From Chloroflexota bacterium (lineage in GTDB: Bacteria > Chloroflexota > Dehalococcoidia > Lucifugimonadales > UBA826), in NCBI GenBank assembly GCA_003228105.1, contig QGNN01000002.1:26-64025 (forward strand): 64,000 bases of DNA, read 5' to 3'. Shown piece after piece: positions 2,171-44,342 of the stretch (position 1 is the first letter of the stretch; each line of letters begins with the position of its first letter). The notes below the pieces were generated by a model, which worked only from the letters and a program-made list of their open reading frames with translations, was not told the DNA's origin and searched no databases. Made by a program: the position numbers and the translations under genes.

Positions 2171-3328
2171 ATGAGTTTAAGAACCATAGACGAGACACCC
2201 AAAATTCTAACTTCTTCAGATGATCTAGAGAAGATCATTGAGGATTCATTGTCTAACCGTTACGTAAGCATTGACATAGAAGGAAACGGTTTCTTCCGAT
2301 ATCCAGAATATGTATGTTTGATCCAACTTTGTGTAGGTGAAGATATATACCTTGTTGATCCGCTAGCAATAGATGACTTATCTTCCCTAGGTAAAGTGCT
2401 CGATAACGATAAAATTGTCAAAATCCTTCATGCTGGTGATTATGATGTTCGTAGTCTGAATAGAGATTATGATTTTTCATTTCGCAATGTTTTCGACACC
2501 AGCCTAGCCGCTGCTCTTTTAGGATCAAAGAAATTGGGACTCGATTCGGTTTTGAAAGAATATATCGATGCTGATGTGACCAAAGATAAAAAGCTTCAGA
2601 GGAGCGACTGGAGTATACGACCCCTTAGTAAAGAGGCTAGAAAGTATGCGGCGGATGACGTCAGGTATTTATTCCGAGCTATGGAAGTTATGACAAACAA
2701 ACTCGAAAGCCTCGGACGGATTTCATGGTTGAAAGAGGAGTGTGAGAGGCTGCAACTTGTAAAGTTCAATCCTAGAGATGAGGACACCGCCTTTTTGGAA
2801 GTTAAAGGAAGTAAAAACTTAGATGGTAAGGCTTTGTCAGTGTTGCAATCGTTATATTCCGTCCGAGAAGATGAGGCTATAGGCAGGGATCGACCACCTT
2901 TTAAAATCGTAGGAGATTCAGTGTTAGTGGCTATTGCCAGGGAACCTTATTCCAATTATTCAGAGATTAAGGGGATTGGTATGTGGGGTCGCCTCGAAGT
3001 GTCGAAACGGATTAGAAAAGTAGTGACAGAAGCCCTCAATCAGCCCCCGGTTGAACGACCTCGCAGGCAAAACACAAGAACGAATGTAATGTCGAGTAAA
3101 GAAAGAGAAAAGGCTAATACCAGATTGAAAGAATTAAAGGAATGGAGGAAGGCGCTGGGGGAAAATATTGGTATAGATCCTAGCCTTTTATGGCCAACTA
3201 TTAGTCTTGACAGACTTTCCAGAGATCCAAGTAGGTTTGGGGAAGAGGTATCAGAACCTCAGGTAAGGAAATGGCAATATCTAGAATTCGGGAAAAAATT
3301 AGAAGCTAAATTAGCCTGTATACTGTAG
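2171..3328 (+). CDS. rnd: ribonuclease D (DEDDy 3'-5' exonuclease plus HRDC domain)
   Basis: 385 aa. Exo motifs SIDIEGNG, KILHAGDYDVRSL, YAADDVRYL; C-terminal HRDC-like region. Confidence 0.85.
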   Translation: MSLRTIDETPKILTSSDDLEKIIEDSLSNRYVSIDIEGNGFFRYPEYVCLIQLCVGEDIYLVDPLAIDDLSSLGKVLDNDKIVKILHAGDYDVRSLNRDYDFSFRNVFDTSLAAALLGSKKLGLDSVLKEYIDADVTKDKKLQRSDWSIRPLSKEARKYAADDVRYLFRAMEVMTNKLESLGRISWLKEECERLQLVKFNPRDEDTAFLEVKGSKNLDGKALSVLQSLYSVREDEAIGRDRPPFKIVGDSVLVAIAREPYSNYSEIKGIGMWGRLEVSKRIRKVVTEALNQPPVERPRRQNTRTNVMSSKEREKANTRLKELKEWRKALGENIGIDPSLLWPTISLDRLSRDPSRFGEEVSEPQVRKWQYLEFGKKLEAKLACIL

Positions 3329-3376
3329 ACTACGCCCCCATTTACTAAGAGGTATACGTATGGATTTTTTGGTCTC

Positions 3377-3718
3377 GTGGTGGTTATTATTTATTTTATT
3401 TCGATCTTTTTTTTTGTTACCAGTTTGTGTTTCAAACTTAAATCCGCAGTCTCGGAGCTGAAATCACGACTTAGGAGTCAGTCCACCCGATACGGCCAAA
3501 TAACCGAACAGTTTTTACCTTTAGTTGAAGCTTACCCTTGGGATAGCAAACAATTTAGATTTCTCGGCAGCCCAATCGATGGGATACAGTTCGAAGAAGA
3601 CAAAATAGTTTTGGTGGAATTCAAGTCTTCTTTTAGTCAGATGTCTGTCAAGCAGAGAAAAATAAAGGAATTGGTTGAACAAGGGAAAGTTGAATTTGAA
3701 TTGATAAGAGTAGGATAA
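3377..3718 (+). CDS. membrane-anchored endonuclease related to archaeal Holliday-junction resolvase (COG4741 / Endonuc_Holl-like)
   Basis: Hydrophobic N-terminus, coiled segment, then GQITEQFLPL...FRFLGSPIDGIQFEEDKIVLVEFKS...QRKIKELVEQGKVEFELIRV. The start is uncertain: GTG at 3377 has no SD, while an SD-preceded ATG at 3360 is one frame off across a T9 run. Confidence 0.55.
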   Translation: MVVIIYFISIFFFVTSLCFKLKSAVSELKSRLRSQSTRYGQITEQFLPLVEAYPWDSKQFRFLGSPIDGIQFEEDKIVLVEFKSSFSQMSVKQRKIKELVEQGKVEFELIRVG

Positions 3719-3742
3719 AAAGTACAAAAGAGTTTTAATGAT

Positions 3743-4816
3743 ATGAGCAATTTATTTACCCCTATCACGATAAGAGGGGAAAAAATACGGAACAGGCTTT
3801 TCGTAGCACCTATGTGTCAATATTCAGCTAATAATGAAGATGGCGTGGCAACAGATTGGCATATGGTTCATTTAGGGACTAGAGCTGTGGGAGGTGCTGG
3901 ACTTGTCATGGCTGAGGCGACGGCGGTATCCCCTGAGGGAAGAATATCCCCGCAAGATCTGGGTATTTGGTCTGATGAACAGGCTTCTGTATTGCAGCCG
4001 ATTGCCAGTTTTATTGATTCGCAAGGGGCAACTCCCTCTATTCAACTGGCCCATGCAGGTAGGAAAGCATCACACAAAAGACCATGGGAAGGTGGCGATG
4101 TTTTAACAAAAGAGAAGGGTGGATGGGATATAGTCGGACCTAGTTCGCTTGAATTTGACGAAGGGTGGGTTGTCCCTGATGAACTGACAATGGAGGATAT
4201 AGATTCAATAATCTCAGCCTTCTCCATATCTGCAGTTCGGTCTGTTGAAGCGGGATTTAGAGTATTGGAATTACATTTAGCTCATGGATACTTGGCTTGT
4301 GAGTTCATGTCACCCCTATCCAATAATAGGAACGACAGGTATGGAGGAACACTGAGGAATAGGTGTCGATTACCCATAGACATTGTCTCTGCAGTAAGAA
4401 AGTCTATTCCAGAGTCTATGCCGTTATTGGTTCGCATATCTGCAACGGAATATATGCCAGACGGGTGGTCGCTTGAAGATTCAATAGAACTTTCAGGTTG
4501 GTTAAAGGAGGAGGGTGTTGATATGATAGATTGTTCCTCCGGTGGAAATTCACCGTCTCAAAACTTGGATGCATTCCCTGGATATCAGGTACCGTTTGCA
4601 GCTGCCATAAAAAAAGAAGTTGGAATTTTAACTGGAGCAGTTGGTTTGATTACCGACGCTTCTCAAGCTGAGCAAACTCTGCGGAATGGAGAGGCAGATG
4701 CTATTCTTCTGGGAAGAGAACTACTCAGGAATCCTTACTGGCCGTTGAACGCGCAGGTTGAGTTAGATGGTCAAGATTCTGTATGGCCACCTCAGTATGT
4801 GAGGGCGAGGCGGTAG
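3743..4816 (+). CDS. namA: NADPH dehydrogenase, Old Yellow Enzyme family (YqjM/NamA type)
   Basis: 357 aa. LFTPITIRGEKIRNRLFVAPMCQYSA, HLAHGYL, RNDRYGG, LLGRELLRNPYWP. Confidence 0.85.
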   Translation: MSNLFTPITIRGEKIRNRLFVAPMCQYSANNEDGVATDWHMVHLGTRAVGGAGLVMAEATAVSPEGRISPQDLGIWSDEQASVLQPIASFIDSQGATPSIQLAHAGRKASHKRPWEGGDVLTKEKGGWDIVGPSSLEFDEGWVVPDELTMEDIDSIISAFSISAVRSVEAGFRVLELHLAHGYLACEFMSPLSNNRNDRYGGTLRNRCRLPIDIVSAVRKSIPESMPLLVRISATEYMPDGWSLEDSIELSGWLKEEGVDMIDCSSGGNSPSQNLDAFPGYQVPFAAAIKKEVGILTGAVGLITDASQAEQTLRNGEADAILLGRELLRNPYWPLNAQVELDGQDSVWPPQYVRARR

Positions 4817-4831
4817 ATAATAAATATAGAT

Positions 4832-4981
4832 CTATTTAAGCCAGTTCCGGATCAAAAAAATACCGATTCCAATTACGAAGCCGACCGCTGTCATTTCAAT
4901 ATTTCCTTTTATGAGTCCTCCAGTAACGAGCCCCAATGACACAGAAAATGCGCCGACAAGAATAAACCAACCCCTACTCAT
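4832..4981 (-). CDS. small (49 aa) two-helix membrane protein, hypothetical
   Basis: My translation: MSRGWFILVGAFSVSLGLVTGGLIKGNIEMTAVGFVIGIGIFLIRNWLK*. AAGGA lies about 10 nt upstream. It falls below the ORF-track length cutoff. Confidence 0.35.
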   Translation of the reverse strand: MSRGWFILVGAFSVSLGLVTGGLIKGNIEMTAVGFVIGIGIFLIRNWLK

Positions 4982-5091
4982 AAAATATTTTCCTTTGTAA
5001 TAATTGACTTTAACGTTTATCTTAACCCCTAGAGAACATTACAAATAGATTTTTTTGGGGCAGTCTTTATTAGGTATATTAAGGAGCAGGT

Positions 5092-5583
5092 ATGGATACG
5101 GAAATTTTGCGATTAGCGAACCTGACAGCGGATCTTCTAATTGAATCTAATCAAACTATTGGAATTGCAGAATCATCTTCTGGTGGTTTAATTTCAGCGC
5201 ATTTGCTGGCTATACCCGGGGCTTCTAAATATTTTGTGGGTGGATCCGTCATATATACCAGAGTGGCGCAACGCAATTTATTAGCGGTAAATGATGAACA
5301 AATGGAAGGATTGAGAGCTTCCACAGAGCAATATGCCTCCCTGAATGCCAAAACGATACGGGAATTGCTAGGTACTACATGGGGGTTGAGTGAGACTGGA
5401 GCCACGGGCCCTACAGGGAACCGGTATGGAGATTCTGCTGGTCATTCCTGCATTGGTGTTTCAGGCCCTTTATCCCGCTCCAAAACTTTGGAAACCGGGA
5501 TCGAAAAAAGAGAAGAAAATATGGTCTCTTTTACCAAGGGGTCTTTAGCGTTTCTAATAGAGTGCCTGGAAGAGAATCGGTAA
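5092..5583 (+). CDS. CinA-family protein (stand-alone C-terminal domain, PncC-like nicotinamide-nucleotide amidohydrolase)
   Basis: 163 aa. IGIAESSSGGLISAHLLAIPGASKYFVGGSVIYT motif; AAGGAG SD upstream of the ATG. Confidence 0.8.
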   Translation: MDTEILRLANLTADLLIESNQTIGIAESSSGGLISAHLLAIPGASKYFVGGSVIYTRVAQRNLLAVNDEQMEGLRASTEQYASLNAKTIRELLGTTWGLSETGATGPTGNRYGDSAGHSCIGVSGPLSRSKTLETGIEKREENMVSFTKGSLAFLIECLEENR

Positions 5584-5584
5584 C

Positions 5585-5908
5585 TTTACTTCGATATTTA
5601 TTTCATTATCGGTTTTTGGCCTCGGAATGGGGGGTATAGGTGCTCTCGGGCCATTGGCAGTAACTGAACTTTTCGGTATGAAAAATTACGGGACTCTGAA
5701 CGGTTTAATTCGGCAGGGAGTTATTATTCCTGGGATAGCCGGTCCTTTATTAGCTGGGGCTATTTATGACAGTCAAGGTAGTTACGATCTAGCTTTCAAA
5801 ATAATTTTGGGGTTTCTGTTTTTATCGTTTTTGTGTTTTATTTTAGCTAGTCCTCCGGCAAGGGAAGAAGATTCCCGAAACCGAAGAACTGGAAACGCTA
5901 AACTCTAA
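5585..5908 (+). pseudogene. 3' stump of an MFS (oxalate/formate antiporter-like) transporter gene, last 3 or so TM helices only
   Basis: The open frame starts right at the stop of the upstream gene. NLTSIFISLSVFGLGMGGIGALGPLAVTELFGMKNYGTLNGLI...AGPLLAGAIYDSQGSYDLAF parallels the C-terminus of the intact MFS at 18229..19431 (FGVKHFGTIMGVI...GPIIAGMSFDATGSYAVAF). There is no N-terminal half. Confidence 0.65.
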
Positions 5909-6815
5909 TAAATTTTTGAAGTCGGGCACCGTCCAAAGTTTCACCGACGTATAGGCTTCCCTCTGAGTCAATCCCAACTGCGTGAGCGGCCACTATATCA
6001 CCAGCGGTATGTGTGTCCGCGCCCCATCCACCTAGCCACTGTCCATTTTTTGTCATAATTTTGACTCCAGAATGAGGAGTAACAACGGTGACTTCATCAG
6101 GATCAGCCCCTTGCCTCATGCCAAGTTCAGTCACGTACATCGCTCCGTCTTTACCATGCAAAATTTCATTTGGCTTGTGAACTCCTTTCCATTCTGAGAC
6201 ATATTGTCCTGATGATGTAAAAATCTGAATTCGGTTGTTCTCACGATCTGCCACATAAACAAGACCAGAAGGGTCTACCTCAACGCCGTGTGGAAGCATA
6301 AATTGTCCGGGTCCAGTTCCTCTTTCACCCCATGACCCAATTAACTTTCCTTCAGGCGTGTAATGATGAATTCTGGAGTTACCGTATCCGTCAGAAATAT
6401 AAATCGAGCCGTTTAGACCAAAAGCTATGTCAGTGGGTTTGTTAAAGGGCTCGCCACTTTGCTCAGGGGCGGGTTCATTTGGGGTACCCAACATCATCAA
6501 TTGTTCGCCTTCAGCCGACCACTTACGTACAGTATGGTCACCTATATCGGTTGTCCATATGGAATCGGCGGGCCCAACTTGCACGTGATGTGCTGATGAG
6601 AAACTATCCTCACCCCACGTGGCTAAAATAGTTCCGTCTTTATCTAATACAATCATTGGGTGCTCGCTTCTGTTGTAGGCGAAAATACGATCCTGACTAT
6701 CAACACAAACCCCCACCACGTGATTCCATTCCCATCCACTCGGTAAAGGGGCCCAGCCAGGAACATTTTCATATGTGTACTCGCCGTAGCTCACTCGTAA
6801 AGGTTTGGTTGCCAT
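5898..6815 (-). CDS. NHL-repeat six-bladed beta-propeller protein
   Basis: 305 aa with repeated blades (GVCVDSQDRIF, PTDIAFGLNGSIYISD, PHGVEVDPSGLVYVADRENNRIQIF, AHAVGIDSEGSLYVGE). Confidence 0.75.
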   Translation of the reverse strand: MATKPLRVSYGEYTYENVPGWAPLPSGWEWNHVVGVCVDSQDRIFAYNRSEHPMIVLDKDGTILATWGEDSFSSAHHVQVGPADSIWTTDIGDHTVRKWSAEGEQLMMLGTPNEPAPEQSGEPFNKPTDIAFGLNGSIYISDGYGNSRIHHYTPEGKLIGSWGERGTGPGQFMLPHGVEVDPSGLVYVADRENNRIQIFTSSGQYVSEWKGVHKPNEILHGKDGAMYVTELGMRQGADPDEVTVVTPHSGVKIMTKNGQWLGGWGADTHTAGDIVAAHAVGIDSEGSLYVGETLDGARLQKFIRV

Positions 6816-7036
6816 TACTTTCTCCCTGAAATATTCGTTATCTGGTTACAGAAACATAGTTTACGTAGAGGTCTTTTGTAGGCTTGGAACTATACTTTGT
6901 TGATTGAATCTATTCAAGATATAGAATTTCCTTTTCTATTGATTGACAGTGTTTTTAGTGAACGATAGACTCTTTTGAGACGAACGACAGTCAACGGATA
7001 CTGTTTTATTAAGGATCATGAATTAAGGAGAATATA

Positions 7037-7228
7037 ATGGGGAAATATAGTTGTGGTGATTGCGGAATGGAAGTACATCCTATTACTTGCGGGAAATGTG
7101 GAACAGAATTGACTCATGTAAATATTGAGAAAGATGACGGTACGACAGTTGGTGTAGCAGAATGTACTAACGGTTGTGGCAAAATTAAGTCACCGATGTG
7201 CTGTGGACACGATATGGCTGCCGCGTAG
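7037..7228 (+). CDS. small Cys-rich metalloprotein (63 aa, 12 Cys), desulforedoxin-like CxxC...CCGxDM signature with an inserted Cys knuckle
   Basis: AAGGAG lies 7 nt upstream of the ATG and a strong terminator lies downstream. YSCGDCGMEV...CGKCG...CTNGCG...MCCGHDM. Confidence 0.7.
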   Translation: MGKYSCGDCGMEVHPITCGKCGTELTHVNIEKDDGTTVGVAECTNGCGKIKSPMCCGHDMAAA

Positions 7229-7254
7229 CTGGACTAACTTGAACAAAGTAATGA

Positions 7255-7288
7255 AATGGGTCGCTTTTGAGCGACCCATTTTTATTTG
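7255..7288 (+). terminator. Rho-independent terminator
   Basis: Perfect 10-bp stem aatgggtcgc / gcgacccatt (7255-7264 / 7271-7280), 6-nt loop, followed by tttatttg. Confidence 0.8.
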
Positions 7289-7297
7289 ACTCCTTTT

Positions 7298-7783
7298 ATG
7301 TTTACTTTCTTAAATCAATATTCATACATATTGGTTTCTCTTTTCATAGTGACCATAGCTTTCTTTTTGGTCTACCGCGCTTTTTCGATAAAACCCGCTT
7401 TACTATCGATTCTAATTCTTGTGCTAGTTGTAGTGTTTTTCCAGAATTCCTTGACGAGTTCCCCTGATGAGTTAAAGGATATTTCTGCTTGGGACTCATT
7501 ACACAATTCTGGTCGCCCCGTCTTACTGTATTTATATTCCGATCTTTGAATTGGATGCCTATCTATGAAACCTGCCGTTGACAGGTTGGAAGTGCAACTG
7601 GATCAGGAATTAATATTCGTTAGGCTAGAAGTGCAAAGCCATGTCGGCAAGATTTTATATAGTAAATACGATGCAAAGCGGGTACCAACTTTCATAATTT
7701 TCGACCAATCTGGAGCTATTCGTTACAGAACTAATGGTGTCCCTGCATACGCTTCAATTAATTATATGTTGGTTGATAATTGA
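7298..7783 (+). CDS. membrane-anchored thioredoxin-fold protein with one in-frame TGA (7547-7549) at the first Cys position of CxxC; candidate selenoprotein (UxxC), alternatively a nonsense pseudogene
   Basis: Track ORFs 7286..7549 and 7565..7783 share a frame. The joined sequence is ...GRPVLLYLYSDL-TGA-IGCLSMKPAVDRLE...KRVPTFIIFDQSG, which matches the thioredoxin core (W-C-G-P-C-K-x-x-x-P ... cis-Pro PT). Two N-terminal TM helices. Confidence 0.55.
7569..7587 (+). promoter_or_regulatory. candidate bacterial SECIS-like hairpin
   Basis: 6-bp stem AACCUG/CAGGUU with a 7-nt loop CCGUUGA (contains GU), starting 19 nt after the in-frame UGA. Confidence 0.3.
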
Positions 7784-7790
7784 TCAGGAC

Positions 7791-8960
7791 TCAACTAGTG
7801 TTTTTGGTAATAATTGTTGACCCAAATGAAAGTGCAATACACAAAGAGGAGAGAAAAAATAATCCAGGATTAAACCCATTGAATATATCGGCAGAAAAGC
7901 CTAATAAAATTGGACCTAACACTCCACCTACTTCTCCTGCTGTGAAATAGAGTCCTCCGGCCGCACCTGTTTTTTCACCCCCTACCATTGATATTAATGT
8001 AAGCATGATGATCGGCATAACACCTCTTGATGCAATTCCCAGAACGATGAGTACACTCAGAAGCAGAGAGTTTTCAAAATATATTAAACAGATAGTACAG
8101 GCTGCGGCGATCCAAAAAAGCGTAAAAACAATTTTCTTATGTGCGTTGGGTTTCGCAAACTGTGGGATGACTGCTGTCCCTGCTGCCCCCGTAGCAATCG
8201 GTATTGCTGCTAACAACCCGGCTTTTGAGGAGCTTAAACTTTTTTCAATCAGTATTTCAGGAAGCCAATTATTAGTTGCATGATTGAAAAAAAACATTCC
8301 AAGTACGATGATTAGAATTAAACGTACTTCTCTCACTCTAACTAGGTCAGGGAAAGTTTTCATACTTGCTAAGAGATCTTTTTTATCACCGGGGTTTAAG
8401 ATGTCAGGTTTGAGGTCTCTAGCAATTAATATCCAGATTATTGCTGTAATAAAAGCCATGCCAGCCAGTGTCAATAAAGTTAATCTCCAACTATGATCAT
8501 AAAGAGGCATTAGGAGACTGTTGGTAGCTGATAACACAAGTATCCTCCCGACCGCAGGGACAGTCAGATATATTCCCATTGCACGGCCCCGGTCGGATTC
8601 AGAAAACCATGTGCTAATTAATTTTGGTGCGCCAATCGATATGAACGGGCCACCTAAACCAAATACCATTACCGCAAAAAGTAGCGTTTTGTAATCGATG
8701 GCTATGGCCCTAAGGAGTCCGGAAATACCAATAAAGATAACCCCAATCATAATTGTGAATTTCAGATCGAATCTATCTAATAAAGCCCCGGCTGGAATTG
8801 CGGTCAATATATAAATTAGTGGCCATGCGCCCAATACAGTTCCCATCGTCGTACGGCTCAAGCCTAGGTCCTGGCTAACCGGCCCAATTAGAGGAGGTAT
8901 GCCTCCCTGCACTACCCCAATGAGAAATAGGCTAGCCAAACACCTGCGAGCATTACCCAT
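7791..8960 (-). CDS. MFS transporter
   Basis: 389 aa, about 12 hydrophobic helices; LDRFDLK and ESDRGRAMG loop motifs. Confidence 0.8.
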   Translation of the reverse strand: MGNARRCLASLFLIGVVQGGIPPLIGPVSQDLGLSRTTMGTVLGAWPLIYILTAIPAGALLDRFDLKFTIMIGVIFIGISGLLRAIAIDYKTLLFAVMVFGLGGPFISIGAPKLISTWFSESDRGRAMGIYLTVPAVGRILVLSATNSLLMPLYDHSWRLTLLTLAGMAFITAIIWILIARDLKPDILNPGDKKDLLASMKTFPDLVRVREVRLILIIVLGMFFFNHATNNWLPEILIEKSLSSSKAGLLAAIPIATGAAGTAVIPQFAKPNAHKKIVFTLFWIAAACTICLIYFENSLLLSVLIVLGIASRGVMPIIMLTLISMVGGEKTGAAGGLYFTAGEVGGVLGPILLGFSADIFNGFNPGLFFLSSLCIALSFGSTIITKNTS

Positions 8961-39723: not shown

Positions 39724-41193
39724 ATGTCTAACAGAAATTCTAAAATCGGATGCCTTTTAATAACTCATTTTGGGGTTAAATCAGAGATTAATAAAAACCC
39801 TGCACTCTCCGATAATGAGATTATTTTATATTCTTGCGAATCTTCTAAATTACCTGTAGTTGAAGATTTTTCTAAAACTATAAAGAATATTTCAAAAGGA
39901 ATTCCACTTTCATCGGCATTGTCTAGATATCCAGATTCCGTAAGATTTGAATTTGATCGTAAAAATTATGAACAAATCTTTGCTTCAGTCATATCAAATA
40001 TTGCACGAATAACTCCAAAAATTGAGAGATCAGGTTTGGGGATTATTTATTTAAATATACATGGGTTGAGTGAAATGTATGGAAGTGAAGCTAAATTAGT
40101 TACCCATATATTGGATTCAATTCCATATTTTCTAGAACCAAGATTTGGGATATCTGTAAATAAATTTTCTGCATATGCCGCAGCCATTTCTTCTACCCCG
40201 GGTGGGTCTACAAAAATATTGAAAAATATCGATGCTTTTTTAGCTACTTTCAATGTGGATATATTACCTGTAAAAAAAAGCACTATTATTAATTTCCATA
40301 AATTTGGCATGCATACAATTGGTGATATAGCGGCTCAAGATTACGGGTTGATTTATTCTAAATTTGGGGATGACGGTTCTAGAGCCTTATCGCTGTCTCG
40401 CGCTGAAAATAGTGATTACATTTCTTTTAATAAACCTGTTCAGAATATAACTGAACACGTATCTTTACCATTTCCTTCTGATTCTCTTTCGATTCTTTTT
40501 ACAACGTTAGATTTTTTGATACAGAAGGCTTTTATGCGATCTGTGTTGAAAAATAAATACGTTAGAAAAATATCTATTTTGCTTGAACTTGTTGGATCTC
40601 AAGTTTGGATCAAGAATTTGATCTTAAAAAGACCGCTTGGTAATTCCAATGATTTATGTTTATTACTTAGATCAGAGTTAGAAGATTTGGAATTGCCCGG
40701 ATCAGTTGACGATATCTCGATTACAATTTCAGATTTTGTTGGAGAGCATGGTATTCAATATCGTGCTTTCAAAGAAATTCACGATCACCTTGATGGACAG
40801 AGAGATCAGTTGATTAAAGTAGACCGTCACATTCGCAAAAAAATACCTGCCAAAAACTCTCTTTACAAGCTCCTTACTGTGAATGCAGAGCATCCGGTTC
40901 CTGAGCGAAGGGCATTACAGATTTCTATAGACCCTGATACGGAATTTTCTGTTAGGTCTATTAATCTACCTCAAAAAATCACAGTTCAAGAGGTAAATAA
41001 TACCCCTAAATTTCTATCTTTACCTAATGGAGATAATCTAAAAGTTAAAGTTTTAGACATCTGGAAGATTGACTTATGGTGGATCCCGGATCCGATTAGT
41101 CGTACCTATTATAGTATCAGTACATCTGACCATAAGATCATGACGATATTTAAAGATAGTGTTGGAAAACGTTGGTATCGTCAAAACTACTGA
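39724..41193 (+). CDS. imuB: ImuB, catalytically inactive Y-family polymerase-like protein of the SOS mutagenesis cassette
   Basis: 489 aa, Y-family-like layout. The catalytic acidic motifs are replaced (CLLITHFGV for DMDxF; IYLNIHGL for SIDE). Immediately precedes and overlaps dnaE2. Confidence 0.7.
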   Translation: MSNRNSKIGCLLITHFGVKSEINKNPALSDNEIILYSCESSKLPVVEDFSKTIKNISKGIPLSSALSRYPDSVRFEFDRKNYEQIFASVISNIARITPKIERSGLGIIYLNIHGLSEMYGSEAKLVTHILDSIPYFLEPRFGISVNKFSAYAAAISSTPGGSTKILKNIDAFLATFNVDILPVKKSTIINFHKFGMHTIGDIAAQDYGLIYSKFGDDGSRALSLSRAENSDYISFNKPVQNITEHVSLPFPSDSLSILFTTLDFLIQKAFMRSVLKNKYVRKISILLELVGSQVWIKNLILKRPLGNSNDLCLLLRSELEDLELPGSVDDISITISDFVGEHGIQYRAFKEIHDHLDGQRDQLIKVDRHIRKKIPAKNSLYKLLTVNAEHPVPERRALQISIDPDTEFSVRSINLPQKITVQEVNNTPKFLSLPNGDNLKVKVLDIWKIDLWWIPDPISRTYYSISTSDHKIMTIFKDSVGKRWYRQNY

Positions 41194-44100
41194 TGCACGC
41201 TAGCTCTAAATATGTGGAACTACATGCGCATAGTTTTTACTCTTTTGGTGAAGGGGCTTCTCATATAGATGAACTCCTTACTAGAGCTTATGAACTAGCC
41301 TATCCTGCGATGGCGCTTACGGATTACAACATGTGTGGGGCTTTAGAATTCTCTAGGCAATCTGATCATTTTGGGATAAAACCTATAACGGGTGCTGAAA
41401 TCATCCTCGAGGATGATTCTCACATAGTTTTACTAGCTAAGAACAGGATCGGATATTCCAACATATCACGATTACTCACTTTAGCTAATGGATCGGACCG
41501 TAGGGAACCCAGGTTAGACCCTATGCATATACCTGAATATGCCTCTGGAATCATACTACTTACTGGTGCACAGAATGGCCTAATTTCCAATGCTATTAAA
41601 GAACACAAAATAGAAAAAGCAAAAATCATGCTTAATAAATATAGGGAGTATTTTGAAGATGATTCCATCTATATAGAGTTAAATCGTAACTTTATGTATG
41701 GTGATTCTAATCGTATAAATTCATTAATTTCTATAGGGTCCGATATGAAACTTCCGTTAGTTGCAACTAATAATGTTCATTACCATATTGCTGATAGATA
41801 CAAGTTACAAAATGCACTCACTTCAATTAGAAGTAATACGAATTTAGATAAATTAACCCACCTTCTTAAGATAAATTCCGAATTTTATCTAAAATCAGAA
41901 TCACAAATGCAACGGTTGTTTAAATCTATACCCAAGGCCCTTACAAATACACTCGCTATATCTGATATGTGCGAATTCAATTTATCTTCTGATCTTGGTT
42001 ATGAACTACCCTCACCCAGTGTTCCAGATGGATTTACTCCTTTTACGTACCTTAGTCACCTTTGTTATGAAGCTGCACAAAGACGCTATGGCGAGGTGAA
42101 TAATTCTGTAGACAATAGATTGAGAGAGGAGTTGAGACTTATAAAAAAACATAACTTAGCAGGCTTTATGCTTTTATACCGGGAAATCGTTCTTATAGCA
42201 CGAGAAATAAGTGTTGATATGGGTAAATTGGATTCAGAGGAACCTATAGAAATTAGGTCACCTGGAAGAGGTAGGGGATCTTCGGTTGCCATGCTAACTG
42301 GATATTTAATAGGTATATCTCATGTCGACCCTTTATTGTACAACTTAACGTTAGAGAGATTTGTACCAGAAGATTTAAAAACATTACCTGACATAGATAT
42401 AGATTTTCCTAGATCAATAAGAGAGAAATTAATACCGAGAATTCATGAATATTTTGGACCTCAGTTTGCAGTGCTCACAGGTATGATAACTAGGTATAAA
42501 CTAAAGGGAATTTTAAAAGATTTAGGTAAAGTTTTCGGAATACCAGATGCAGATATCAGTAATCTTTCAAAAAAAATTCATACTTCAGATCCTACCTCCT
42601 TGAAAGATGAGATGTTGTCTATTCCAGAATTTAAAAATGCTGTTGATTTACCAGAATGGAAAAATATTATTTCTCTTGCCTCTCAGCTTAAAAATGCTCC
42701 CAAGGCTTTGGGTCAGCATGTAGGGGGAATGGTTCTAAGTTCCTCTCCCATTTCAGATATGGTCCCTTTTAGAAAGAGTGCACTCGAAGGTAGATACATC
42801 ATTGATTGGGATAAAGATAGTGTTGCTGATGCAGGGTTTGCAAAAATAGACATACTCTCTCTTCCTGTTTTGGATCAAATAGATGAATCCATATCTTTAA
42901 TTCGAGATACAACAGGTAAGTTAGTTGACATTAGCCAGATAGATCCAAAAGATAATAAGGTCTTTGACATGATAAACACAGGTTTGTCAAAAGGTGTGTT
43001 TCTTCTCCAATCACCTGCACAGTTAAAGATGGGCCAACGTCTTCTATCAAGAAGTTTAAATGACCTTGCTTATCAAGTTGCTTTAATAAGACCTGGAGTA
43101 GGTGTGCAGGGGAATTCAGTTTCACAATTTGTGGAACGCTATCAACATGGAATATCGTGGCAATATGATCATCATCTAGAACAACGTGCTCTTGAGCGGA
43201 CTTGTGGGATTATTGTGTGGCAGGAACAGGTAGTACAGCTAATATCGGATATATCAGGAATAAGTCAGGCTGAATCAGATGAGATACGGAGAGGATTTGC
43301 TAAAACTAATAATGAGGGTCTCATTAAAGCTTACTGGGAGAAATTTGTAAAAGGTGCCATTAAAAATGGGGTTTCAGAAGAGATAGCTTACAAAATATTT
43401 TCTAAAATAAACGGGCAATATATGTTTCCGGAGTCTCACTCTCATGCTTTTGCTGTTTCAGCGTACCAGTCAGCGTGGCTAAAAACTCATTATCCATTAG
43501 AGTTCTATGTCAGTCTTATGAATAATCAGCCTATGGGATTTTATCCTTTGGAGACTATTAAACAAGATGCGAGGAAATTTGGAGTCGATTTTTATAACCC
43601 TGATATTAATCATAGCCAAAACAAATGTACGGTTAACGGCAATTCACTTTTAATTGGGTTGGAATTTGTTAAAGATATTGGGATACAGAATTCTAAAAAT
43701 ATTATAGATGAGCGTGATGTTCGAGGTCCTTTTAATTCTATGGGTGATTTTATTCGCAGGGTTCAAATAAAACCAGATTCAGTGGAATCATTAATTTTTT
43801 CTGGAGCATTTGATTCGCTTATATCTAATCGTAGACTGGCTTTATGGGAATCAGGACTTTATAAAGGTCCATCTGGGGCGCAAATAACTTTACCTATTTC
43901 AATGGACGACAATATACCTAGCTTAGTCGACTTTTCCAGCTATGAAAAAATGATATTGGAATATAAGGTCCTAAATATGTACCCTAAAGGCCATATCATG
44001 GATTTTATTAGGCCTTTTCTGCCTTCGGATGTTTCGAGTACTTACGAGGTTTATTCAATGAGAGAGGGTGAATTAGTATCTGTGTGTGGAATAGGAATTG

Positions 44101-44342
44101 CTAGGCAACATCCAAGAGGGCATAAGGGGACCATCTTTGTTACCGTAGAGGATGAAAGTTCAGATATTCAATTAATACTTTGGCCGGACATATACAAAAA
44201 ATATATGAAGGTTTTAGAAGACCCTATTATTTTGGCTACAGGAAAAATATCACAACAGGATGGTACTACTAGTGTGGTTGTATCTCATTTAGAAACCCTA
44301 GAACCGAAGATTGGATTACCTTCTGCACATAATTGGTACTAA
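41193..44342 (+). CDS. dnaE2: error-prone DNA polymerase III alpha-like subunit DnaE2 (ImuC)
   Basis: PHP domain YVELHAHSFYSFGEGAS, pol III alpha core, C-terminal OB fold; about 1050 aa. The ATG at 41193 overlaps the imuB TGA (TGATG). The track ORF opens at the TTG at 41172. Confidence 0.85.
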   Translation: MHASSKYVELHAHSFYSFGEGASHIDELLTRAYELAYPAMALTDYNMCGALEFSRQSDHFGIKPITGAEIILEDDSHIVLLAKNRIGYSNISRLLTLANGSDRREPRLDPMHIPEYASGIILLTGAQNGLISNAIKEHKIEKAKIMLNKYREYFEDDSIYIELNRNFMYGDSNRINSLISIGSDMKLPLVATNNVHYHIADRYKLQNALTSIRSNTNLDKLTHLLKINSEFYLKSESQMQRLFKSIPKALTNTLAISDMCEFNLSSDLGYELPSPSVPDGFTPFTYLSHLCYEAAQRRYGEVNNSVDNRLREELRLIKKHNLAGFMLLYREIVLIAREISVDMGKLDSEEPIEIRSPGRGRGSSVAMLTGYLIGISHVDPLLYNLTLERFVPEDLKTLPDIDIDFPRSIREKLIPRIHEYFGPQFAVLTGMITRYKLKGILKDLGKVFGIPDADISNLSKKIHTSDPTSLKDEMLSIPEFKNAVDLPEWKNIISLASQLKNAPKALGQHVGGMVLSSSPISDMVPFRKSALEGRYIIDWDKDSVADAGFAKIDILSLPVLDQIDESISLIRDTTGKLVDISQIDPKDNKVFDMINTGLSKGVFLLQSPAQLKMGQRLLSRSLNDLAYQVALIRPGVGVQGNSVSQFVERYQHGISWQYDHHLEQRALERTCGIIVWQEQVVQLISDISGISQAESDEIRRGFAKTNNEGLIKAYWEKFVKGAIKNGVSEEIAYKIFSKINGQYMFPESHSHAFAVSAYQSAWLKTHYPLEFYVSLMNNQPMGFYPLETIKQDARKFGVDFYNPDINHSQNKCTVNGNSLLIGLEFVKDIGIQNSKNIIDERDVRGPFNSMGDFIRRVQIKPDSVESLIFSGAFDSLISNRRLALWESGLYKGPSGAQITLPISMDDNIPSLVDFSSYEKMILEYKVLNMYPKGHIMDFIRPFLPSDVSSTYEVYSMREGELVSVCGIGIARQHPRGHKGTIFVTVEDESSDIQLILWPDIYKKYMKVLEDPIILATGKISQQDGTTSVVVSHLETLEPKIGLPSAHNWY

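Follow-up and report, generated by a model that had tools for sequence, protein, structure and literature searches.

A conserved in-frame UGA in the catalytic-cysteine column of a membrane-anchored thioredoxin-like gene of SAR202: a candidate selenoprotein

Introduction

Does an in-frame stop codon at the active site of a thioredoxin-like gene mark a broken gene, two genes, or a gene in which the codon is read as an amino acid? This question is raised by positions 7286 to 7783 of a 64-kb stretch of DNA (64,000 nucleotides of contig QGNN01000002.1, Chloroflexota assembly GCA_003228105.1; hereafter the window), which comes from the SAR202 clade of the Dehalococcoidia. Few bacterial clades are more abundant in the dark ocean than SAR202. 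An earlier note, made from the letters of the window alone, had proposed that the locus encodes a UxxC selenoprotein, with selenocysteine (Sec) at the first position of a thioredoxin CxxC motif. Our data support this candidate, since the TGA is conserved, falls in a cysteine column and is followed by a conserved hairpin. We consider it likely that 7298-7783 is an intact SAR202 gene whose UGA is decoded as selenocysteine as directed by a hairpin at 7569-7587.

Results

The locus consists of two open reading frames (ORFs), 7286..7549 and 7565..7783, both on the plus strand. As the earlier note had described, they share one frame and are separated only by the TGA at 7547-7549 and five sense codons (ATT GGA TGC CTA TCT, encoding I-G-C-L-S), which lead up to an ATG at 7565. 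The joined translation reads MFTFLNQYSY...GRPVLLYLYSDL-[TGA]-IGCLSMKPAVDRLE...KRVPTFIIFDQSG...VDN, and its middle part ...GRPVLLYLYSDL-[TGA]-IGCLSMKPAVDRLE...RVPTFIIFDQSG.... Because distant homologs all begin M-x-x-x-L-N-Q-Y-S, the start is most likely the ATG at 7298 and not the TTG at 7286. Counted from this ATG, the joined product has the 161 residues given in the earlier note. The complete gene for the membrane-anchored thioredoxin-like protein accordingly occupies 7298..7783 on the plus strand, as do all of its elements described below, with 161 codons and a terminal TGA (7781..7783) that is the true stop by translation. Codon 84 is the internal TGA (7547..7549); it is the candidate codon for selenocysteine and occupies the alignment column in which CxxC has its N-terminal catalytic Cys. 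In the NCBI and JGI databases the gene is annotated as two adjacent hypothetical proteins (e.g., HAT22329.1/HAT22330.1).

We next asked what residue homologs carry in the TGA column. With the read-through variant P0001 (a sequence with a sense codon at this site, discussed below) as query, an exhaustive HMMER search returned 240 relatives, mostly of about 160 amino acids and with the same two-helix N-terminus. Across 88 aligned full-length homologs, the TGA column holds Cys (as part of CxxC) in 74, Trp in 11, Ser in two and a gap in one. The DNA of five of the 11 "Trp" proteins was fetched, and in all five the codon is TGA and the gene had been called under genetic code 4. A sixth lineage beyond these five, L028 (71% GC, 30% identity), likewise has TGA in the catalytic-Cys column. 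The expectation that homologs would carry Cys or TGA at this position is thus borne out by the 74 Cys and 11 "Trp" sequences and by the DNA behind five of the latter. A rough neighbor-joining tree shows TGA and Cys forms interleaved, which suggests that switching between the two forms occurred repeatedly. A tblastn search of plasmids returned generic thioredoxins only. Four distant relatives of 878-1642 amino acids (P0033, P0092, P0103 and P0133) contain five to seven tandem copies of this thioredoxin-like domain.

The alignment to the thioredoxin core on which the earlier note relied, with the TGA on the N-terminal catalytic Cys, is confirmed by profile searches. With U replaced by C, the protein matches Pfam PF00085 at 28.9 bits (cut-off 23.5), and the family profile matches solved thioredoxins in the PDB at an E-value of 2.8e-16, with "ySnyCvaC...tPtF" aligned to "WAPWCGPC...IPTL". 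In the latter alignment the TGA/Cys column coincides with the first Cys of CGPC, as does the invariant Pro130 with the cis-proline (I-P-T). The two residues that the note had found retained, the resolving Cys and the cis-proline, are among the most constant of the family: in the 74-sequence alignment the column of C87 of U-I-G-C (TGC, 7556..7558) is near-invariant, with only synonymous variation (TGC/TGT) among SAR202 sequences, and that of P130 of V-P-T (CCA, 7685..7687) is the sole fully invariant one.

A model predicted with AlphaFold from the family alignment (predicted local distance difference test, pLDDT, 93.9) comprises helices at residues 9-28 and 31-52 followed by a thioredoxin fold, in agreement with the two transmembrane (TM) helices predicted earlier to precede the fold. 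The TM helices (7322..7453; pLDDT >88) form a predicted hairpin anchor, and the thioredoxin-fold domain (residues 62-159; 7481..7774) is delimited by Pfam PF00085, the PDB profile search, the secondary structure of the model and Foldseek. Residue 84 directly precedes helix 85-101 in the model, at the N-terminus of the active-site helix. The best Foldseek matches are classical thioredoxins, with a TM-score of about 0.75-0.79 when normalized to thioredoxin length. Together, the alignments and the model show that the TGA column is the catalytic-Cys column.

We then examined whether the TGA and the reading frame beyond it are maintained. The closest genome records to the joined protein are Dehalococcoidia/SAR202 metagenome-assembled genomes (MAGs) at 94, 84 and 81% identity. 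Eleven N-terminal fragments (97-98 amino acids, 65-98% identical), all of which end in ...YSD[LF] at the same residue, came from a word-indexed protein search, and the C-terminal fragment alone was found on 364 contigs. DNA from approximately 30 loci yielded 14 distinct TGA-bearing SAR202/Dehalococcoidia sequences, 61-98% identical at the amino acid level and drawn from more than 25 independent assemblies. All 14 have TGA at codon 84 and are colinear, with no indels and no extra stops. The ratio of nonsynonymous to synonymous substitutions (dN/dS; pairwise Nei-Gojobori) is 0.07-0.48 downstream of the TGA compared to 0.11-0.35 upstream, while dS between SAR202 subgroups exceeds 1.3 and reaches more than 2, so that synonymous sites are saturated. 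Beyond SAR202, TGA occupies the same column in six further lineages (L028, L029, L030-32, L033, L034/35 and L036) that stand at 30-40% identity, a recurrence beyond what chance would give.

The five codons between the TGA and the ATG at 7565 vary synonymously (GGA/GGG/GGT, TGC/TGT, CTA/TTA), with a single Ser-to-Tyr exception in L026, and are therefore translated in this frame. By these substitution patterns, the gene is translated through the TGA and is under purifying selection; the part downstream of the TGA, which the earlier note had singled out as the place to look for decay, carries no further lesions. A whole-window screen for an in-frame TGA with a hairpin and an open frame on both sides found this gene as the only sensible site, and two screens yielded no other selenoprotein candidate in the 64-kb window.

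Given that Sec insertion in bacteria is directed by an element known as the selenocysteine insertion sequence (SECIS), we asked whether the hairpin downstream of the TGA is conserved. The 6-base-pair (bp) stem and 7-nucleotide GU-containing loop reported earlier are present at 7569..7587 on the plus strand: the arms are AACCUG (7569-7574; AACCTG in the DNA) and CAGGUU (7582-7587; CAGGTT), and the loop is CCGUUGA (7575-7581; CCGTTGA). The hairpin begins 19 nucleotides past the TGA, and this offset is constant across lineages that range from 26% to 71% GC. The corresponding arms are AGCCCG/CGGGCU in L028, AGCCUG/CAGGCU in L029, AGCCUG/UAGGCU in L030, AGUUCG/CGAGCU in L033, AACCUA/UAGGCU in L034 and AGCCUU/AAGGUU in L036. 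The consensus is 6 bp plus a 7-nucleotide loop nnGUnnn, with GU always at loop positions 3-4, and the only stem mismatch by lineage is an A-C at pair 2 in L034.

In an alignment of 11 sequences, 98.5% of the cells are paired and compensatory changes on both sides of the stem occur at four of the six pairs. These pairing and covariation values were reached by none of 500 shuffles, and sliding the 3' arm lowered pairing to 54% or less. Some of the compensation entails amino acid swaps: Pro/Arg to Phe/Glu in L033, Ala/Asp to Thr/Ser with a G-C to A-U change in L034, and Ala/Asp to Phe/Lys with a G-C to U-A change in L036. RNAalifold, applied to a 66-nucleotide alignment, predicts exactly the 7569-7587 helix and no other. 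Furthermore, third-codon-position variability among SAR202 sequences reaches a minimum at codons 88-96, exactly over the hairpin. Given the peptide and local codon usage, the expected probability of full pairing is 0.03-0.08 per lineage, apart from L033 at 0.70. A full stem can be encoded by 10 of 12 TGA-type peptides compared to 12 of 74 Cys-type peptides (Fisher p = 9e-6).

The published model of the bacterial SECIS (bSECIS) has a loop of 3-9 nucleotides, an upper stem of 4-16 bp, a UGA-to-loop distance of 16-37 nucleotides and a minimum free energy (MFE) of -7.5 kcal/mol or lower (PMC13188914, Fig. 2). The hairpin in the window falls within each of these ranges, with a loop of 7 nucleotides, a stem of 6 bp and, with context, an MFE of -11.1 kcal/mol; its first loop base lies 25 nucleotides after the UGA, and the earlier statement that the spacing is that of a bacterial SECIS holds. 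Like the bSECIS consensus, of which Escherichia coli fdhF is an example, it is a coding-region hairpin with a small apical GU loop, 25-nucleotide spacing and a 6-bp upper stem. Unlike the consensus, its loop has the G at position 3 of 7 and its stem is short, and unlike the fdhF SECIS it has no conserved bulged U.

Discussion

Several observations weigh against the selenocysteine reading; they concern the hairpin, the decoding machinery and one variant sequence, and we consider each with the alternative on which it bears. The hairpin alone folds at -6.3 kcal/mol (z = -1.5) and, with 54 nucleotides of context (the UGA plus 51 nucleotides), at -11.1 kcal/mol (z = -0.9), so that shuffled sequence is as stable; the hairpin is significant because it is conserved with covariation, not because it is stable. 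An Rfam scan of 7200-7850 at E-values up to 10 found no SECIS and no credible family. The first G of the window loop CCGUUGA is at position 3, compared to the first two loop positions in the bSECIS model, and only pairing of C7576 with G7580 would bring the loop into the usual N1-G-U-N-N2 pattern. The loop-G position of the model is found in L029 (GAGUUGA) and, with stems extended to leave 5-nucleotide loops, in L030 (AGUUG), L033 (AGUUG) and L036 (CGUGA). In addition, the conserved peptide K-P-x-V-D-R-L fixes part of the stem: second codon positions force the A-U of pair 1 and the C-G of pair 4.

A further point of this kind comes from a Cys-type homolog. P0159, from Anaerolineae (L037-L040), forms AGCCCG...UGGGCU at the same offset after TGC, with six of six pairs including one G-U. 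It is the one Cys-type homolog whose DNA was read, and it was picked as having a stem-compatible peptide; by chance, such a hairpin would be expected with a probability of about 0.09. Restriction of the hairpin to UGA forms is therefore not demonstrated. In P0159 it may be due to chance, may be a relic of a Sec-to-Cys switch or may have a role independent of UGA.

These properties of the hairpin raise the possibility that selenocysteine is inserted but that SelB does not bind the 7569-7587 hairpin, or does not bind it alone. The hairpin would then be an older mRNA feature or partly a by-product of KPxVDRL, and the signal would reside in a wider fold or another element. The occurrence in P0159, the two pairs of six forced by conserved second codon positions, the G at loop position 3 and the MFE fold of 7547-7600, which puts a lower stem around the hairpin, all favor this possibility. 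However, TGA-type lineages compensate both at synonymous sites and by paired amino acid replacements, the full stem is not encodable by 62 of the 74 Cys-type peptides, the minimum of synonymous variability lies exactly over the hairpin, and the 66-nucleotide alignment contains no other conserved helix. We regard this as unlikely, although it is the strongest of the alternatives.

The second group of observations concerns the Sec machinery. Within the 64-kb window, selA, selB, selD and tRNA-Sec were not found by ARAGORN or by Pfam searches of window ORFs: ARAGORN detected no tRNAs in the window, and Pfam searches of 30 further window ORFs gave no SelA, SelB or SelD. In the literature that we searched, SAR202 and selenoproteins were never linked, and no selenium-related terms were found in the supplements of three SAR202 genome papers. 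More broadly, BSepDB counts two Dehalococcoidia MAGs among its ten bacteria richest in selenoproteins (PMC13326102), Sec-specific elongation factors are present in single-cell genomes of Chloroflexi (PMC4959059), and two sponge-associated bins have COGs for SelA, SelB and SelD, their nearest 16S relative being SAR202 at only approximately 83% identity (PMC5649159, Table S4). The Sec trait exists in the class Dehalococcoidia, with support from the literature at the level of the class or of a loose clade only.

That no Sec genes were found in the window favors a reading in which the UGA is read through without selenocysteine, by a near-cognate tRNA (Trp, Cys or Arg) and perhaps stimulated by the hairpin, or in which the codon is reassigned in some of the low-GC lineages. 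Several low-GC contigs were called under code 4, and they are too short to fix their genetic code. Set against this, TGA is a normal stop in SAR202, where it ends this gene and 12 of the 47 long ORFs of the window, and the sole in-frame TGA of each lineage is in the catalytic-Cys column. Trp in the genes from low-GC lineages is encoded by TGG (four in L034/L035, one in L036 and one in L029; none in L030 or L033). Furthermore, a CxxC site whose nucleophilic Cys is replaced by Trp, Gly or Arg would be inactive, yet the gene is under purifying selection, and interchange of Sec and Cys in the CxxC of a thioredoxin fold is a classic selenoprotein signature (PMC1794560). Read-through of this sort is, in our judgment, slightly less probable again than a SECIS element elsewhere.

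Reassignment of TGA under code 4 or 25 can be treated separately. Since the terminal TGA at 7781..7783 closes this gene, TGA still terminates translation in this organism, and with the 12 of 47 long ORFs ending in TGA, reassignment is excluded in SAR202; it is unlikely in the low-GC lineages. In L030/L031, a called "gene" at approximately 1030-1414 with two in-frame TGAs is a code-4 artefact; the real ORF, which has 162 codons and runs off the contig end, lies on the other strand.

A more radical possibility is that SAR202 and the other carriers read the UGA without canonical Sec machinery, the hairpin being an older mRNA element of the family that promotes read-through or was co-opted later for recoding. 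If true, this would account for the repeated switching between Cys and UGA. We think it improbable, a little more so than ordinary read-through.

Two separate genes, one for a two-helix membrane peptide of 83 residues that ends at the TGA and one for a protein of 72 residues that starts at the ATG at 7565, would fit the conservation of this ATG in SAR202 and the listing of separate hypothetical proteins by NCBI and JGI. We reject this reading as very improbable, given that the five codons between the ORFs are conserved at the protein level with synonymous change, and at the position of the Met the remaining TGA lineages carry Ala, Leu or Tyr, with no alternative start codon there. The split would also cut the thioredoxin fold after its first strand and leave both products without CxxC, and the 74 homologs are single full-length proteins.

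The last observation that counts against the favored reading is the variant used as the search query. In L018/P0001, a single 1.1-kb contig (ena:ERZ23496476 scaffold_54637), AGA AAT (Arg-Asn) replaces TGA ATT at codons 84-85. Four of the five differences between L018 and its nearest relative, L012, are changes to A, and no second Arg variant at codon 84 was found among the sequences examined. The variant is probably an error or a rare inactivating lesion. A dead gene, in which a nonsense mutation struck a decaying thioredoxin-like gene, was the main alternative named in the earlier note and is the least credible of all: although L018 has a different codon at the TGA site and the window does hold a real gene remnant (see below), the TGA stands in one and the same column in all orthologs and also in lineages that are 30-40% identical, dN/dS is as low downstream as upstream, frameshifts and further stops are absent despite saturated synonymous sites, and with dS above 2 the assemblies are not one clonal sequence.

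We therefore return to an intact gene that is probably decoded with selenocysteine, and compare its product with known systems. Thioredoxin-fold UxxC selenoproteins are a well-known class with thioredoxin, thioredoxin-like and thiol:disulfide interchange types (PMC1794560; review PMC13188914), and by its sequence the gene described here would represent an additional family in it. As in that class, the candidate Sec replaces the N-terminal Cys of CxxC at the start of the active-site helix, Cys homologs are in the majority, Sec and Cys forms are interleaved, and a small coding-region hairpin follows soon after the UGA. What sets the family apart from other members is its N-terminal anchor of two helices, together with its motif YS-x-x-U/C-x-x-C-x-x-x-KP.

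The protein is recognized by generic thioredoxin models only, and no dedicated NCBIfam selenoprotein model matched it. NCBIfam includes the thioredoxin-like selenoprotein families SaoT (NF040730), HUIPC-motif (NF047660), VPGUxxT (NF041383) and TsoB (NF045694) (PMC13188914), which have in common a thioredoxin-like fold with U in or beside the redox motif. In hmmscan at E-values up to 1, the protein falls outside all four: TsoB alone gave a match, at 17.8 bits compared to a cut-off of 805, confined to its DsbD-like thioredoxin domain. The combination of an N-terminal membrane anchor and a CxxC thioredoxin fold, probably on the outer face, is shared with TlpA/ResA/CcmG and cyanobacterial slr1796. 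Unlike TlpA/ResA/CcmG, there are two anchor helices instead of one, and the domain resembles classical thioredoxin, not TlpA/Redoxin. The NCBIfam TlpA model gave 12.9 bits (cut-off 230), Pfam found neither Redoxin nor AhpC-TSA, and the score of the NCBIfam slr1796 model was far under its cut-off.

We infer the inserted residue, the role of the hairpin in SelB binding and the membrane topology, and propose the following mechanism. With UGA84 in the ribosomal A site, SelB-GTP-Sec-tRNA(Sec) bound to the hairpin 19 nucleotides downstream would deliver selenocysteine. The product would be a 161-residue thiol:disulfide oxidoreductase with the active site U-I-G-C, in which Sec84 would take the place of the nucleophilic first Cys and, as thioredoxin chemistry suggests, attack substrate disulfides or oxidized thiols. 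By the same chemistry, Cys87 may then resolve the intermediate via a selenenylsulfide. The helical hairpin would hold the mature protein in the membrane with the thioredoxin domain outside. The domain probably faces outward because the loop between the two helices is rich in K and R throughout the family (on average 2.2 K+R in 7 residues compared to 0.5 in the N-tail), in keeping with the positive-inside rule.

If the gene is of the Sec type, SAR202 would need selenium for one or more membrane-associated redox functions, because the gene is conserved and very widespread (364 contigs). It also calls for correction of hundreds of database entries in which the gene is split into two hypothetical proteins or read with the wrong genetic code. 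With many Cys forms, several independent UGA forms and a hairpin in a fixed position, the family offers a compact natural system in which to follow Cys/Sec interchange, and it suits the study of a SECIS under simultaneous coding constraints.

Genomic neighborhood and other features of the window

The 5' boundary of the gene is marked by a 12-bp terminator-like hairpin (7254..7281, no strand assigned), which lies between it and, as its terminator-like element, belongs to an upstream gene for a 63-amino-acid, Cys-rich, zinc-ribbon-like protein (7037..7228, plus strand), identified from the ORF list and from synteny in SAR202 loci. Public calls of the N-terminal fragment begin at an ATG at 7256, within this hairpin, and yield 97-amino-acid products that start "MGRSKATHFYL..."; the extension contains its own TGA (7268-7270) in the window, and we regard it as an annotation artefact. 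The 14 SAR202 sequences also show a second minimum of third-codon-position variability at 7307-7342 (codons 4-15, L-N-Q-Y-S-Y), as deep as the one over the hairpin downstream of the UGA, which may be due to RNA structure or to constrained translation initiation.

The 63-amino-acid gene precedes the TGA-containing gene in every SAR202 locus that shows upstream sequence (L001-L011 and L017), and L018 has a 58-amino-acid call in its position. Its protein has the pattern CxxC-8-CxxC ... C-3-C ... CC, with weak, sub-threshold matches to zinc ribbons. As a guess, it could be a partner or substrate of the thioredoxin-like protein. In the Anaerolineae MAGs (L037-L040, approximately 2660-3962), a classical thioredoxin, the Cys-type homolog, a 64-amino-acid Zn_ribbon_8 protein and a CsoR-like metal-sensing repressor form a tight cluster, whose content hints at thiol or metal stress. 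We detected no homology between the SAR202 Cys-rich neighbor and the Zn_ribbon_8 neighbor in Anaerolineae, and no operon partners are conserved across the lineages.

Elsewhere, the window contains genes for major facilitator superfamily (MFS) transporters, enolase-superfamily enzymes, short-chain dehydrogenases, amidohydrolases and a luciferase-like monooxygenase, a content that we take to be typical of the SAR202 clade. The real gene remnant mentioned above lies at 5581-5908 (ORF 5627..5908), where the window keeps the last approximately 330 nucleotides of an MFS transporter. L001 has a full MFS / AcrB-like / MFS block (2713-8648) between the CinA and NHL-repeat genes, and this block is absent from L007. 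In contrast to the TGA-containing gene, the segment at 5581-5908 is a real deletion scar. At 39724-44342, an imuB-like gene (IMS family) overlaps a dnaE2-like gene for the alpha subunit of an error-prone DNA polymerase III, and the two genes lie where the GC content of the window is lowest (35-39% compared to about 42% elsewhere).

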